In this document: piece after piece, positions 37,388-44,810 of the stretch
Numbering within the stretch: the stretch's first letter is position 1
Layout: the number at the start of each line of letters is the position of its first letter
IMG/VR virus record: IMGVR_UViG_3300045988_158256
Origin: a virus
Taxonomy: Duplodnaviria > Heunggongvirae > Uroviricota > Caudoviricetes
Reading direction: 5' to 3' (one strand)
DNA length: 64,000 bases
The notes under the pieces: model-generated
What the model was told of the DNA's origin: nothing
Databases searched by the model: none
The model's input: the letters and a program-made list of their open reading frames with translations, nothing else
Program-made: the position numbers and the translations under genes

Positions 37388-38581
37388 GTGACCTGGGACG
37401 ATCACAAGAAGAATTTTGCTCGCCTGGCGCGAGATGGTGGTTACACCATCGCACAATATGCCGCCGAGTTTAATCTCAACCCAAACACCGCACGTCGTTA
37501 TCTCCGTGCATTCAAAGAAGACACCGGAACAGCGGACAGCCGTAAGCCAAATAAGCCTGTCAGAAAACCACTAAAAAGCATGATCATTGATCACGCTAAT
37601 GATCAACGTGCAGGTGATCACGTTGTGGCTGAAATGGCTGAAAAACAAAGAGTTAATGCTGTTGTCAGTGCCGCAGTCGAGAACGCGAAGCGCCAGAATA
37701 AGCGCATAAATGATCGTTCTGATGATCATGACGTGATCACCCGCGCCCACCGGACCTTACGTGATCGCCTGGAACGCGACACCCTGGATGATGATGGTGA
37801 ACGCTTTGAATTCGAAGCTGGCGATTACCTGATAGATAACGTTGAAGCGCGGAAGGCCGCGCGCGCTATGTTGCGTCGGTCCGGGGCTGATGTTCTGGAA
37901 ACCACTCTTCTGGAAAAGTCTCTCTCTCATCTCCTTATGCTGGAGAACGCCAGGGATACGTGTATTCGCCTGGTGCAGGAAATGCGCGATCAGCAAAAAG
38001 ACGATGATGAAGGTACTCCGCCTGAATACCGTATCGCGAGCATGCTAAACAGCTGTTCCGCGCAGATAAGCAGCCTGATCAACACCATTTACAGCATCCG
38101 GAATAACTATCGAAAAGAAAGCCGGGAGGCGGAAAAGCACGCTTTGTCTATGGGGCAAGCTGGCATTGTTAAGCTGGCATACGAACGAAAGCGTGAAAAT
38201 AACTGGTCAGTGCTGGAAGCAGCTGAATTCATTGAGGCGCATGGCGGGAAAGTGCCGCCCCTGATGCTGGAGCAAATCAAAGCCGATCTGCGTGCTCCTA
38301 AGACCAATACCGATGATGAGGAAAGGCAAACAGCCGTCGGTGGCCCTTCTCTTGAAGATCTGGACAAAGTTGCGCGAGAACGGGCCGCCAACCGCCGCGC
38401 CGATGCCGCATTGTGGATTGAGCAGCGTAGGGAAGAAATCGCCGATATCGTTGATACAGGCGGTTATGGAGATGTTGATACTGAAGGTGTATCAAACGAC
38501 CCATGGCTGGAACAAGACCTGGACGAAGACGAGGAGGAAGACGAAGAAGTTACCCGCAAGCTATACGGGGATGATGATTAA
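37388..38581 (+). CDS. pacA: terminase small subunit PacA
   Basis: 397 aa, GTG start with AAGGAAG SD; contains the pac site; acidic C-terminus. Confidence 0.85.
37581..37739. other. pac: pac packaging initiation site
   Basis: Four TGATCA hexamers at 37581-37620 and three TGATC(A/G) at 37711-37739 inside pacA, the classic 4+3 Dam-site hexamer arrangement. Confidence 0.85.
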
Positions 38582-40065
38582 TGGCCAGAAGTTGCGTAAC
38601 GGATCCACGTTGGCGCGAGCTGGTGGCGCTATATCGTTATGACTGGATTGCTGCCGCTGATGTTTTGTTCGGCAAAACACCTACCTGGCAGCAGGATCTG
38701 ATTATTGAGTCTGTGCAGGAACAGGGTAGCAAGACATCTGTTTCGTCTGGTCACGGTACCGGGAAATCAGACATGACTTCTATCATGATCATGTTGTTCA
38801 TAATCATGTATCCCGGTGCCCGCGCCATTATCGTTGCGAACAAAATTCAGCAGGTAATGACCGGTATATTCAAGTACATCAAGATAAACTGGGCTACTGC
38901 CACCAGCCGTTTTCCATGGCTTGCTGATTATTTTGTTCTGACAGAAACCGCTTTCTATGAGGTTACTGGTAAAGGTGTATGGACTGTAGTACCGAAGGGC
39001 TTTCGTCTGGGAAGTGAAGAAGCTCTCGCCGGTGAACACGCAGATCATCTTCTGTATATTATCGATGAAGCCTCCGGTGTCAGTGATAGAGCTTTCGGTA
39101 TCATCACCGGTGCTCTTACCGGACAGGATAACCGCATCTTATTGCTGTCACAGCCTACACGCCCAAGCGGCTATTTCTACGATACACACCATAAACTGGC
39201 CAAGCGTCCTGGTAACCCTGATGGCGTTTATACGGCGATCACGCTTAACAGTGAGGAATCACCGTTGGTAACGCCAGCATTTATCAAAATGAAGCTGGCG
39301 GAGTACGGCGGGCGTGATAACCCTATGTACATGATTAAGGTACGCGGCCTATTCCCTAAATCACAGGATGGCTTCCTTCTTGGACGTGATGAGGTTGAAC
39401 GTGCAACGCGGCGGAAAGTCAAGATTGCCAAAGGATGGGGCTGGCTTGCATGTGTGGACGTTGCTGGTGGTACGGGACGGGATAAGTCCGTTATCAATAT
39501 CATGATGGTGTCCGGCCAGCGAAATAAACGCCGTGTAATCAACTATCGAATGCTGGAATACACAGACGTTACAGAAACGCAGCTTGCCGCCAAAATTTTC
39601 GCAGAATGTAATCCTGAGCGATTCCCAAATATCACCATAGCGATAGACGGCGATGGCCTGGGTAAAGCAACGGCGGATCTGATGTACGAGTATTATGGTA
39701 TTACCGTACAGCGTATACGCTGGGGTAAAAAGATGCATAGCCGTGAAGATAAGAGCCTGTACTTTGATAAACGTGCTTATGCCAACGTTCAAGCCGCAGA
39801 GGCCGTAAAATCTGGTCGTATGAGACTGGATAAGGGTAATGAAACTATTGAGGAAGCGTCGAAAATCCCTGTAGGGATTAACTCCGCAGGTCAATGGAAG
39901 GTGATGAGTAAGGAGGATATGAAGAAAAAACTCAACCTGCACTCACCAGACCATTGGGATACATATTGTTTCGCTATGCTGGCGGATTATGTTCCCCAGG
40001 ATGAAGTGCTTAGCGTCGAAGACGAAGCGCAGGTTGATGAAGCTCTGGCATGGCTTAATGAATGA
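38581..40065 (+). CDS. pacB: terminase large subunit PacB
   Basis: 494 aa; start overlaps pacA stop (TAATG). Confidence 0.85.
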
Positions 40066-40068
40066 ATA

Positions 40069-40085
40069 TTTGCTCTAATAAATTG
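40069..40085 (+). promoter_or_regulatory. C1 operator-like site
   Basis: TTTGCTCTAATAAATTG, 15/17. Confidence 0.55.
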
Positions 40086-40149
40086 TGTTTTTTAACTACC
40101 GATGTTACATTGAGCCTGACCTCTTGCGCCTTGAGGCATTTTCGGTTTA

Positions 40150-40239
40150 TGCTTATCAGGCACCTCATTAAAACGGGTGCCGGGATTGGCCTCCCGCTTA
40201 AGTCTAAGGCGATACAGACGCCGCTCGCGTCTTTTTTTT
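40150..40239 (+). ncRNA. candidate c4-like antisense RNA
   Basis: Non-coding stretch between operator and icd-like gene ending in an intrinsic terminator; contains GGCCTCC partly complementary to the icd SD region; boundaries approximate. Confidence 0.3.
40217..40239 (+). terminator. rho-independent terminator
   Basis: GACGC-cgctc-GCGTC hairpin followed by T8. Confidence 0.65.
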
Positions 40240-40404
40240 GTATCGGCGTACACGCACACCTCTACAATGGTGGGCTGTATGGGGCTACCTTCGGGTAGGC
40301 TGGTTACCTTGGACGCCAGTAAGGCCAACTCCGTACAGTCCACCGCCAGCAAGATTGGTCTCTTCTGCGGTGGTTACATACCAACGTCTAAGGAGGCTGC
40401 CAAT

Positions 40405-40626
40405 ATGGCTACTATCCCTACCCCAACTCATCCTGAATTTATCTGGCGCTTTTACTCCTGCCAAAAACGTCACTATCACTTCGTTATTGCACCGACAGAA
40501 GATGAGGCCCGCTCTCAGCTTCCTGACGCCCCATGTATTTTCTCTGCCCGTTTTTCCACTGATTCACGCAATTCTCTCAGTTACTGGTGCCTCCCTGTTA
40601 ACGCTTCTGCTCAGGAGGGACTATGA
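40405..40626 (+). CDS. small protein preceding antirepressor (Icd-like)
   Basis: 73 aa with AAGGAGG SD; stop overlaps ant start (ATGA). Confidence 0.45.
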   Translation: MATIPTPTHPEFIWRFYSCQKRHYHFVIAPTEDEARSQLPDAPCIFSARFSTDSRNSLSYWCLPVNASAQEGL

Positions 40627-41741
40627 GAACGTCATTAGTCACCCGTGAAGAGATGATCGAGGCAATTGAACAGCACACTGCCTGTATCAGTACCAGGGAT
40701 ATACCAGGCGTTATTGCCAACTACTTCATGATCACCAAACAACTTTACCGGAGAAAGGACAAGAACGCGGTTCACCGTATCCTGTTGTCTGATATCCGCG
40801 AATACCTGCTCGAACAGGGTCATCTGAATTACGCAACCGCCGCAGCCGAAGCACGCAAGGAGGCACACAGAATGAAAGCAACTAACGTTAAATCAGAAAA
40901 AATTCATGCACCTTCAGTTCAAGAATCGGAGCTGGTGGTTGTTCAGAATCAGTCTGATGAAATTCCCGTTCTGGAATGGCAGGGAGTGCGTGTAGTGACA
41001 ACCGAGACTCTTGCTAGAGGGTATGGGACAGAAACAATCCGTATTCGCCAAAATCATCATGAGAACAAAGTACGCTTTGTTGAAGGGAAGCACTTTTTCA
41101 AAGTTGAAGGAGAATCATTGCGCGAGTTGAAGCACAGAGTAGCTTTAAACTACTCTGTAAAAATTGCTCGCAATGTTCGCTCACTCACCCTCTGGACAGA
41201 ACGCGGCGCAGCCCGCCACGCTAAAATGCTCGAAACCGATCAGGCATGGGCATTCTTTGAAAAACTGGAAGACAGCTACTTCCGACAAAAAGAACAGCAA
41301 CCGATCGCAATCCCCCAGACGCTTCCTGAAGCCCTACGCCTGGCTGCCGAACTGGCTGAACAAAAGCAACTTCTGGAACAGAAAGCCCACCAGCTAAATC
41401 AGCAGCTGGTGGCCGCCGCTCCTAAAGTCGATTTTGCCGACCGGGTATCAGTAGCTAAAGGGATCCTGATTGGGAATTTTGCAAAGGTTGTTGGACTTAA
41501 ACAAAACGCGCTGTTTGTCTGGTTACGGGAGAACGGCATCCTGATAGCGTCCGGTGGACGTAAAAATGTGCCGTTCCAGCAGTACATCAACGCGGGGTAT
41601 TTCACGGTGAAAGAAGTGGTGCTGGATGATGAAGATGGCTACCAGATACGGTTGACGCCTCAATTAACGGGTAAAGGCCAGCAGTGGTTGACGCGTAAAC
41701 TGCTCGATGCTGGCTTGTTAAAACCGGTGGCGGCTGAATAA
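40623..41741 (+). CDS. antirepressor-like protein (Bro-N/KilA-C type)
   Basis: 372 aa with AGGAGG SD; central VLEWQGVRVVTTETLARGYG Bro-N-like segment. Confidence 0.55.
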   Translation: MRTSLVTREEMIEAIEQHTACISTRDIPGVIANYFMITKQLYRRKDKNAVHRILLSDIREYLLEQGHLNYATAAAEARKEAHRMKATNVKSEKIHAPSVQESELVVVQNQSDEIPVLEWQGVRVVTTETLARGYGTETIRIRQNHHENKVRFVEGKHFFKVEGESLRELKHRVALNYSVKIARNVRSLTLWTERGAARHAKMLETDQAWAFFEKLEDSYFRQKEQQPIAIPQTLPEALRLAAELAEQKQLLEQKAHQLNQQLVAAAPKVDFADRVSVAKGILIGNFAKVVGLKQNALFVWLRENGILIASGGRKNVPFQQYINAGYFTVKEVVLDDEDGYQIRLTPQLTGKGQQWLTRKLLDAGLLKPVAAE

Positions 41742-41749
41742 TAGAAGAA

Positions 41750-41771
41750 TGCCCGGTTGATGCCGGGCATA
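41750..41771. terminator. bidirectional terminator between ant-like gene and c1
   Basis: ATGCCCGG-ttgatg-CCGGGCAT hairpin. Confidence 0.6.
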
Positions 41772-41773
41772 AT

Positions 41774-42625
41774 TTATTGCGCGCTTTCGGGGTTGTCGTT
41801 TACTGGCTGCCCCTTCTTGGTTTTACGGCTGCGCGTAACTGATGCGGCTGACTTAACCTTTTTCTCTTCGCGAGTGATGGCAATTTGTTTTTTTACATTT
41901 TCAATATCTGCCAGGCGATATATTTTTGCTTGCGGCCAGCGGTCGCAGATGATCGGTTCTATGGAGTCATAAAGGCTAAATTTTGCTTTTTCGAATTCAC
42001 CGTTGATGATAATTCCATCACGGAGAGTTTCATCGCAGATAAACACGCCACACAGTGGCACATGGTAACTAACTGATTTACCATCATTGTAGTTAGGGCT
42101 ACTGGAAATGTAGTGGACGCGCAGCATTGTTTCGCTAAAGCCGTGTACGCGCATACGGAATTTTTCATCCTCCGGGTACTGCTTCATTAGCTCTTTTGTT
42201 GCTTCCAGGTTCTCTATGTATTTCGCACTGTGCTCATTGATCCCCGCGCTTTTTTGGATGCGAATGTCCTTATCAATCAGATGAATAATGCGGCCAGCGG
42301 TCATGTTGACGCTGTTCACAGCTTCTGTCTGATAAGTTGTAACCTTACGCACACCGCGAAGGATGTTAGGCACTGGATATAAAATAGTCTTTGGGATATT
42401 GAGGTCTGGATACTGTTCCAGTTCCCGCGCCATTAAAGTCCATTTATCAATTTCAGCCTGAATGCTGTCCGTTTCTTTGAACGGCAGAACGACAACCGGG
42501 CGAACAGGACGACCGTCGCTGGCGGCATCAACGTGTTGGGCGCGTGCAACAGCTTTTTTTAGAAAGAGATCCCTGAAGCTGACGAACTCCTGGTACAGTT
42601 GTTCGCCGTAGACATAATTTATCAT
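41774..42625 (-). CDS. c1: C1 repressor of lysis
   Basis: 283 aa beginning MINYVYGEQLYQEFVSFRDLFLKKAVARAQ; recognised as P1 C1. Confidence 0.92.
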   Translation of the reverse strand: MINYVYGEQLYQEFVSFRDLFLKKAVARAQHVDAASDGRPVRPVVVLPFKETDSIQAEIDKWTLMARELEQYPDLNIPKTILYPVPNILRGVRKVTTYQTEAVNSVNMTAGRIIHLIDKDIRIQKSAGINEHSAKYIENLEATKELMKQYPEDEKFRMRVHGFSETMLRVHYISSSPNYNDGKSVSYHVPLCGVFICDETLRDGIIINGEFEKAKFSLYDSIEPIICDRWPQAKIYRLADIENVKKQIAITREEKKVKSAASVTRSRKTKKGQPVNDNPESAQ

Positions 42626-42719: not shown

Positions 42720-42736
42720 AGATTTATTAGTGCATT
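42720..42736 (-). promoter_or_regulatory. C1 operator-like site in c1-coi region
   Basis: Reverse complement AATGCACTAATAAATCT, 14/17. Confidence 0.45.
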
Positions 42737-43183: not shown

Positions 43184-43200
43184 TAATTTATTAGAGCAAT
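43184..43200 (-). promoter_or_regulatory. C1 operator
   Basis: Reverse complement ATTGCTCTAATAAATTA, 16/17. Confidence 0.65.
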
Positions 43201-43266: not shown

Positions 43267-43283
43267 ATTGCTCTAATAATTCT
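43267..43283 (+). promoter_or_regulatory. C1 operator
   Basis: ATTGCTCTAATAATTCT, 15/17; with previous site brackets the coi-c1 promoter region. Confidence 0.6.
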
Positions 43284-43778: not shown

Positions 43779-44810
43779 ATGTCCAATTTACTGACCGTAC
43801 ACCAAAATTTGCCTGCATTACCGGTCGATGCAATGAGTGATGAGGTTCGCAAGAACCTGATGGACATGTTCAGGGATCGCCAGGCGTTTTCTGAGCATAC
43901 CTGGAAAATGCTTCTGTCCGTTTGCCGGTCGTGGGCGGCATGGTGCAAGTTGAATAACCGGAAATGGTTTCCCGCAGAACCTGAAGATGTTCGCGATTAT
44001 CTTCTATATCTTCAGGCGCGCGGTCTGGCAGTAAAAACTATCCAGCAACATTTGGGCCAGCTAAACATGCTTCATCGTCGGTCCGGGCTGCCACGACCAA
44101 GTGACAGTAATGCTGTTTCACTGGTCATGCGGCGGATTCGAAAAGAAAACGTTGATGCCGGTGAACGTGCAAAACAGGCATTGGCGTTCGAACGCACTGA
44201 TTTCGACCAGGTTCGTTCACTCATGGAAAATAGCGATCGCTGCCAGGATATACGGAATCTGGCGTTTCTGGGGATTGCTTATAACACCCTGTTACGTATA
44301 GCCGAAATTGCCAGGATCAGGGTTAAAGATATCTCACGTACTGACGGTGGGAGAATGTTAATCCATATTGGCAGAACGAAAACACTGGTTAGCACCGCAG
44401 GTGTAGAGAAGGCACTTAGCCTGGGGGTAACTAAACTGGTCGAGCGATGGATTTCTGTCTCTGGTGTGGCTGATGATCCGAATAACTACCTGTTTTGCCG
44501 TGTCAGAAAAAATGGTGTTGCCGCGCCATCTGCCACCAGCCAGCTATCAACTCGCGCTCTGGAAGGGATTTTTGAAGCAACTCATCGATTGATTTACGGC
44601 GCTAAGGATGACTCTGGGCAGAGATACCTGGCCTGGTCTGGACACAGTGCCCGTGTCGGAGCCGCGCGAGATATGGCCCGCGCCGGAGTTTCAATACCGG
44701 AGATCATGCAAGCTGGTGGCTGGACCAACGTAAATATTGTCATGAACTACATTCGTAACCTGGATAGTGAAACGGGGGCAATGGTGCGCCTGCTGGAAGA
44801 TGGCGATTAG
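43779..44810 (+). CDS. cre: Cre tyrosine recombinase
   Basis: 343 aa beginning MSNLLTVHQNLPALPVDA; adjacent loxP. Confidence 0.98.
   Translation: MSNLLTVHQNLPALPVDAMSDEVRKNLMDMFRDRQAFSEHTWKMLLSVCRSWAAWCKLNNRKWFPAEPEDVRDYLLYLQARGLAVKTIQQHLGQLNMLHRRSGLPRPSDSNAVSLVMRRIRKENVDAGERAKQALAFERTDFDQVRSLMENSDRCQDIRNLAFLGIAYNTLLRIAEIARIRVKDISRTDGGRMLIHIGRTKTLVSTAGVEKALSLGVTKLVERWISVSGVADDPNNYLFCRVRKNGVAAPSATSQLSTRALEGIFEATHRLIYGAKDDSGQRYLAWSGHSARVGAARDMARAGVSIPEIMQAGGWTNVNIVMNYIRNLDSETGAMVRLLEDGD

Follow-up and report, generated by a model that had tools for sequence, protein, structure and literature searches.

A probable second immI-type module with its own C4 antisense RNA between pacB and c1 of a P1-like phage-plasmid

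The immunity of phage P1 is a textbook three-part system and was described from P1 and P7 with a single immI locus. Here, we analysed 64,000 nucleotides of the IMG/VR virus record IMGVR_UViG_3300045988_158256 (in the following called the window; coordinates refer to it and features are located on the plus strand unless stated otherwise). The window is derived from a P1-like (Punavirus) phage-plasmid, and a block of 1,708 bp between its genes pacB and c1 (40066-41773) contains an operator-like site with candidate promoters, a leader RNA, a C4 antisense RNA, the target sites a2 and b2, and the genes icd and ant1/ant2. We propose that this block is a complete second immI-type module, which by homology would work like P1 immI, and assign a probability of about 75% to this reading. 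The module is genuine and well preserved, and it is probably functional.

Position of the module and the canonical immI locus

In the window, pacA (37388-38581) and pacB (38581-40065) are followed by the block, by c1 on the minus strand (41774-42625), by coi and by cre (43779-44810). In P1, P7, SJ46 and another P1 record, only 24-25 bp are found between pacB and c1, and the block is therefore an indel relative to these phages. The comparison of empty and filled sites revealed that the 24-25 bp of P1, P7 and SJ46 have only the motif ATGCCGG in common with the terminator region of the module. A preliminary description of this DNA had recognized an immI-like module at this position, beside c1 and without kilA-repL behind ant, and gave its start correctly, the full extension being 40066-41773. 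Our results agree with this arrangement: c1 comes directly next to ant, no kilA or repL is located downstream of ant in the window, and the module is flanked by pacB and c1 and not by sim and kilA-repL as canonical P1 immI is. Synteny among P1-like genomes fits as well, since P1, P7 and SJ46 are empty at this site and the phages vB_EcoM-673R5, RCS47 and JL22 are filled.

The title of the same description suggested a displaced immI. In its strongest form, the block would be the sole immI of the phage, moved beside c1 with loss of the canonical locus, and a single C4 and a single icd/ant pair are indeed all that the 64-kb window contains. The window, however, starts at approximately P1 coordinate 55 kb, i.e. 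beyond canonical immI. In the plasmid NZ_LR130557.1, the module is matched with 100% and the start of the window with 99.75% identity, and a canonical C4-icd-ant-kilA-repL-rlfA locus is found 6.5-11 kb further out than the first position of the window. Both loci are also present in vB_EcoM-673R5 (99.7% identity to the window with a 2-kb query, 39900-41900, spanning the module), RCS47 (93%) and JL22 (89%). A sole, relocated immI was rejected on the basis of these four co-resident canonical loci and is very unlikely. The block is an extra immI-type module and does not replace the canonical c4-icd-ant-kilA-repL locus, which is kept by every examined relative having the block.

RNA elements, genes and proposed regulation

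The central element of the module is a C4 antisense RNA gene at 40263-40350, detected by the Rfam model C4 (RF01695) with 75.9 bits (gathering score 45, E = 3e-14). The equivalent of mature C4 would comprise about 77 nt (approximately 40269-40344). In the predicted fold (minimum free energy -40.1 kcal/mol, z = -3.76) the recognition sites a' and b' are both unpaired: b' (CCTTGGAC, 40307-40314) is exposed in a 10-nt hairpin loop and a' (GGCCAA, 40323-40328) in an 8-nt single-stranded bulge. The corresponding target sites are a2 (TTGGTC, 40355-40360), which pairs with a', and b2 (GTCTAAGG, 40386-40393), which pairs with b'; each duplex includes one G-U pair, and the order and spacing of the sites match a2 and b2 as annotated in P1. 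The site b2 overlaps the icd Shine-Dalgarno sequence AAGGAGG (40390-40396), located 9 nt before the icd ATG. Complementarity of a noncoding RNA to the icd leader had been suggested as a check in the preliminary description and is found here, although the RNA is another segment than the one proposed. There, a segment of approximately 150 nt ending in an intrinsic terminator was taken as the c4 candidate. The terminator is present, with a hairpin at 40216-40232 followed by T8 (element 40216-40239 in the terminator scan), whereas the segment itself represents the leader and C4 is located 3' of the terminator.

The RNA gene was also encountered in protein annotations. In RefSeq, a CDS of about 39 aa directly 5' of icd is called 'ash family protein' (NZ_LR130557.1, 15286-15405, and many further RefSeq matches). 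In the numbering of locus L004, which represents this plasmid with its canonical immI, the call (11287-11406) lies over the Rfam C4 match (11323-11410). Here, an RNA gene was likely annotated as protein-coding. E. coli chromosomal loci (matches H114-H119), annotated as 'ash family protein' or Icd-like, are 84-87% identical to the leader/C4 part (query 78-381), and close relatives of the RNA cassette are therefore also present in chromosomal prophages or satellites.

The leader RNA (40160-40239) was matched by the Rfam model isrK (RF01394) at 40160-40237 with 60.8 bits (gathering score 50), whereas the P1 leader reaches only 35.1 bits. A weak match of the model c4-a1b1 overlaps it. The leader contains a first copy of each C4 target site, a1 (TTGGCC, 40186-40191) in a hairpin loop and b1 (GTCTAAGG, 40202-40209). 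Since the C4 and isrK matches are both above the curated Rfam thresholds and the two open reading frames are under purifying selection (see below), the module is more than a chance arrangement.

Upstream of the leader, directly after pacB, a C1 operator-like site is located at 40069-40085 (TTTGCTCTAATAAATTG, 15 of 17 positions identical to the consensus ATTGCTCTAATAAATTT), as the preliminary description had noted. In the alignment, each of its columns corresponds to Oc4 as annotated in P1, and the site is the putative equivalent of Oc4/Op51. The site overlaps the -35 hexamer of a candidate C1-controlled promoter (P51a/P2c4-like, 40083-40111), consisting of TTGTGT (40083-40088), a 17-nt spacer and the extended -10 sequence TGnTACATT (40103-40111), and the hexamers align with annotated P1 P2c4, which by homology points to the same role. 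A second, weaker and presumably constitutive promoter (P51b/P1c4-like, 40124-40159) may be formed either by TTGCGC-18 nt-TATGCT (40124-40153) or by TTGAGG-17 nt-TATCAG (40131-40159). Its position would correspond to that of P1 P1c4, whose -10 hexamer precedes the first hairpin of the leader by 7 nt, and with either option transcription is expected to start near 40160-40166.

The first gene of the module (40405-40626) encodes a protein of 73 aa, which was assigned to the family phage_ICD_like (NCBIfam NF033153, E = 2.6e-13); an in-frame Pfam search of this open reading frame returned no model. Of its 73 residues, 54 (74%) are identical to those of P1 Icd; for the active core, residues 12-51, the number is 35 of 40. 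The core residues were reported to be sufficient for FtsZ-directed inhibition of cell division (PMC11897509). The TGA of icd overlaps the ATG of the following gene as ATGA, in line with the overlap of a 73-aa and a 372-aa frame given in the preliminary description. This second gene (40623-41741) encodes an Ant1-like antirepressor of 372 aa, which in a full-length BLASTP alignment with P1 Ant1 has 55.5% identical residues (E = 1.7e-129). A candidate in-frame internal start for an Ant2-like protein of 289 aa (Met84, 40872-41741) is preceded by AAGGAGG (40857-40863) and is found at the same codon, 84, as the annotated ant2 start of P1. The similarity of both frames to Icd and Ant and the colinearity of the whole block with the annotated P1 record, with the same order and spacing as c4-icd-ant of P1 and P7, substantiate the earlier suggestion of an immI-like unit, and the resemblance holds at every sequence-level feature examined.

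Behind ant, the terminator scan detected a hairpin with 8-9 pairs, 6 of them G-C, at 41749-41770. It is located 3 bp from the c1 stop and was recognized by the scan on both strands, so that ant and c1 have a bidirectional terminator in common, as the preliminary description had stated. The adjoining c1 gene encodes the presumed target of Ant, a repressor with 282 of 283 residues identical to P1 C1.

The domain composition of Ant deserves attention. The protein consists of an Ant1-type N-terminal part of 85 aa, an ORF6N domain (PF10543, aa 116-202, Pfam 2e-19) and a KilAC/ANT domain (aa 260-361, Pfam 4e-31). A Bro-N/KilA-C type had been proposed earlier; the KilAC part was detected, while the N-terminal domain of DNA-binding type is ORF6N and Bro-N was not found with Pfam. 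The ORF6N middle is absent from P1 Ant1, proteins with ORF6N and KilAC occur widely in unrelated prophages, the ORF6N part also giving chromosomal matches, and annotators labelled the protein Roi-like. On these grounds Ant could be directed at another repressor, e.g. that of co-resident prophages, or at a host factor instead of its own C1, and the module would then be a device for cross-induction or competition. We consider this unlikely. The N-terminal 85 aa are also common to P1 Ant1, the KilAC end of the gene has 86% DNA identity to P1 ant, and the Ant2 start is kept. Moreover, a C1 operator-like site would control the module, c1 adjoins it, and the canonical Ant of NZ_LR130557.1 contains an ORF6N domain, too. 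The latter protein has 469 aa and combines the P1-type N-terminus and middle region with the inserted domain. Binding of Ant to the C1 repressor of the phage is thus the function that we would predict.

In P1, Ant1 and Ant2 form the antirepressor, and their synthesis is blocked by the trans-acting c4 RNA (PMC8546580). If the second module follows the same principle, a single transcript would start 5' of the leader and a part of it would halt at the leader terminator. The read-through transcript would be processed to the C4 RNA of about 77 nt, whose loop b' and bulge a' would pair with the sites b2 and a2 of such transcripts and thereby occlude the ribosome-binding site of icd. As translation of ant would be coupled to that of icd via ATGA, neither Icd nor Ant1/Ant2 would be made in the lysogen. 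For the proteins we invoke the roles known from P1, namely that Icd would act as FtsZ-directed division inhibitor and that Ant1/Ant2 would inactivate C1. In addition, C1 bound at the operator would close the outer promoter. Together with the canonical locus, two independent locks would be placed on two antirepressors, both acting on one conserved C1. Since a1 and b1 can pair with C4 as well, the terminated leader may titrate C4, as proposed by analogy to IsrK at the Gifsy-1 locus.

The latter point leads to a different view, in which the module is mainly an activating switch of IsrK/AnrP type. The terminated leader of about 80 nt would act in trans on the read-through transcript, or sponge C4, and so switch on the translation of icd-ant in certain situations, and the element would be an induction trigger and not a lock. 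In the Gifsy-1 circuit, IsrK in its short, terminated form base-pairs with the read-through transcript and activates the translation of a coupled pair of upstream open reading frame (uORF) and antirepressor; complementarity to IsrK is also found in a processed RNA from further downstream (PMC4825925). The leader described here exceeds the isrK threshold and scores higher than the P1 leader, its terminator is clean, and a1/b1 are complementary to C4. These features are nevertheless compatible with repression by C4, since P1 has the same a1/b1 sites, and the downstream output of Gifsy-1 runs through AntQ, which is absent here. As the main function of the module, activation is possible but doubtful. 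Nonetheless, on account of the better isrK match and the activation, known only from Gifsy-1, a titrating or activating role of the leader is a serious complement to simple repression.

Recognition types, conservation and distribution

At the pacB-c1 site, four alleles of the module were counted over the window, the three reference phages and the IMG/VR loci. Type A, to which the window belongs, has TTGGCC/TTGGTC as a sites and GTCTAAGG as b site (20 loci). Type B (RCS47) and type C (JL22) have the a site TTGAGAC in common and differ in the b site, which is GTCAAAGG in the former (5 loci) and GCAAAAGG in the latter (7 loci). Type D combines the a site TTGGAAC with GCAAAAGG (2 loci). When seven site combinations were tabulated (types A-D, P1, P7 and the canonical module of JL22), a1, a' and a2 co-varied, as did b1, b' and b2, and the pairing stayed Watson-Crick with G-U exceptions in type A only. 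Such a concerted change of six short sites would be hard to explain without an RNA-RNA interaction.

Specificity was estimated by duplex energies, which were calculated from short oligonucleotides with intramolecular structure ignored: cognate pairs reached -24 to -28.6 kcal/mol, while C4 of type A on type D targets gave -14.6 kcal/mol, C4 of type D on type A targets -12.7 kcal/mol, and the two crosses between P1 and P7 -17.2 and -19.5 kcal/mol. Pairing between the type of the window and the canonical module of its nearest relative, which is of type D, is thus poorer than between P1 and P7. The heteroimmunity of P1 and P7 was reported to rest on c4 (PMC12197685). In all four genomes in which both modules were read, they are of differing type. 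As C4 of the block has another code than C4 of the canonical module in genomes of this kind, we predict mutual blindness of the two modules, i.e. no cross-regulation in vivo.

The canonical loci themselves are variable. In NZ_LR130557.1 (L004), canonical immI (9641-11546, minus strand) has an IsrK-grade leader, which is not P1-like, and C4 of type D. The same type was found at the pacB-c1 site of the IMG/VR loci L030 and L039. Type D thus occurs at either site, and the canonical Ant of NZ_LR130557.1 has an ORF6N domain; lineages of the module therefore seem to have been swapped between the two positions in the genome. JL22 (L013, about 1280-1666) has a canonical immI of hybrid code, with the a sites of P1 (TTGACAG) and the b sites of P7 (GATTGTG), which indicates recombination within the specificity determinants of C4. 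In 673R5 (L011, 1690-2100), a sites of the P7 type are combined with a further b type (b' CATTCGT, b2 ACGAATG, b1 ACGGGAATG). In the record of this phage icd is annotated as fused to Ant1, and c1 and pacA are also split, so that sequencing errors are possible. In L026 (IMGVR_UViG_2698536372_000019, reverse strand 7728-10540), the module seemed to be duplicated in tandem, with two copies of the junction between the pacB end and the operator at a distance of 1,566 bp. The copies are connected through an 'N', and the duplication was dismissed as most likely an artefact of scaffolding.

Purifying selection acts on both genes of the module (dN/dS of 0.02-0.08 in icd and 0.16-0.36 in ant). An intact icd of 73 aa was present in 30 of 31 loci, and a full-length ant in 18 of the 23 complete loci. 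Disrupted copies were observed in NC_013370.1 (a pO111-type plasmid), NZ_CP060066.1 and the loci L021, L042 and L044 (IS1203, ISSen4; truncated ant/icd), so that the plasmids do not need the module for their maintenance. These copies would also be expected if the block were a decaying leftover of recombination without current function. Such an origin is extremely improbable in view of dN/dS values far below 1, the high proportion of intact genes, the covariation of six sites over four alleles and the wide occurrence of the module.

In PLSDB, 290 plasmids contain at least 80% of the module, compared to 569 with the adjacent pacB end; roughly one natural P1-like plasmid in two appears to carry it. 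It was further detected in 279 of 5,426 complete RefSeq E. coli genomes, almost always on plasmids, and the exact pacB-operator junction occurs in 32 IMG/VR contigs. All components of the module belong to known families, and the insertion is common and was noted earlier: Venturini et al. (2019) mention 'two short hypothetical orfs and ... ant ... between pacB and c1, as in ... RCS47' (PMC6906374), and the gene is annotated as ant in the RCS47 record. In our literature search no account of the RNAs or the specificity of the pacB-c1 module was found. The modest addition made here is to recognize it as a full C4/Icd/Ant unit that has several alleles and would be orthogonal to the canonical one.

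At this point we want to note what weighs against a second, working immI-type module. Expression of the module and binding by its products are predictions. The canonical immI of the window genome lies outside the window, and its presence and type can only be deduced from the near-identical plasmid. A strict sigma-70 promoter scan of 40066-40160 found no site, and the promoters are therefore proposed only through the alignment with annotated P1 promoters. The leader does not fold better than shuffled sequences (z = -0.96), and the simplified calculation of the duplex energies has to be kept in mind. A minority of the module copies is disrupted by an IS element or a frameshift. Finally, with ORF6N in place of the middle region of P1 Ant1, the partner of Ant could differ.

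If the proposed second module is orthogonal to the canonical one, superinfection immunity and heteroimmunity of P1-like phages are set by pairs of RNA codes and not by one. As a speculative extension, P1-like phage-plasmids might stack mutually blind C4/Ant modules like keys on a ring. A resident with two C4 types would silence incoming Ants of either type, and an incomer with two Ants would escape residents lacking one C4, which might be the selective advantage of the arrangement. The pacB-c1 slot would then be a recombination hotspot in which four or more alleles (A-D) are swapped, with the canonical slot as a further partner, and convergent transcription of derepressed ant into c1 might act as antisense. 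P1-like plasmids often carry resistance genes, and dual codes would affect which of them co-exist, displace or induce one another. The alleles also provide a natural set of at least four short, co-varying antisense/target pairs, which is directly testable for specificity.

Apart from the module, 15 further sites in the window match the C1 operator consensus with three or fewer mismatches. One of them (10782-10798) is perfect and is overlapped by an inverted partner (10793-10809), and operator-like sites at 42720-42736, 43184-43200 and 43267-43283 flank c1/coi. Three tRNA genes are located at 11468-11540, 11546-11618 and 13426-13498. As three tRNA genes are also known from P1, these are probably ordinary.

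Comparison with known systems

The closest counterpart of the module is immI of P1 and P7. The same elements are found in the same order and spacing (Oc4, P2c4/P1c4 or P51a/b, a1, b1, c4, a2, b2, icd, ant1/ant2), C4 adopts the same predicted fold with the recognition sequences in loop and bulge, and its targets are doubled, upstream and at the icd ribosome-binding site. Likewise, the 73-aa Icd, the ATGA overlap, the Ant2 start at codon 84 and a C1 operator-like site over the putative outer promoter are shared. In contrast to P1, where immI is located between sim and kilA-repL, the module of the window lies between pacB and c1 and is convergent with c1. It has other a and b sequences, a stronger leader terminator of IsrK grade, and ORF6N in the middle of Ant instead of the P1-specific segment. 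Moreover, modules of this kind co-exist with canonical immI.

A second similar system is isrK-orf45-anrP of the Salmonella prophage Gifsy-1 (Hershko-Shalev et al. 2016, PMC4825925). Its leader small RNA (sRNA) belongs to the same Rfam family and ends at a terminator with partial read-through. As proposed for the module of the window, a stable RNA processed from downstream is complementary to the leader, and a short upstream open reading frame is translationally coupled to an antirepressor. The upstream frame of Gifsy-1 has 45 codons and a variable sequence, whereas a conserved 73-aa Icd homologue is found in the window. Furthermore, the element described here belongs to a plasmid prophage of P1 type under a C1 operator-like site and lacks the AntQ output.

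The CI RNA of satellite phage P4 belongs to the same Rfam clan (CL00128) and is, as predicted for C4, a processed antisense RNA that pairs with repeats (seqA/seqC) up- and downstream in its own transcript (PMC4825925). In P4, however, CI prematurely terminates the transcription of replication genes, and an icd-ant pair is not involved. Finally, RCS47, pTZ20_1P and other P1-like plasmids have the same insertion site and gene content as the window. The descriptions of RCS47 and pTZ20_1P do not include the C4 and leader RNAs, their target sites, the homology of a short open reading frame to Icd or the specificity types, according to which RCS47 represents type B, JL22 type C and the window type A.

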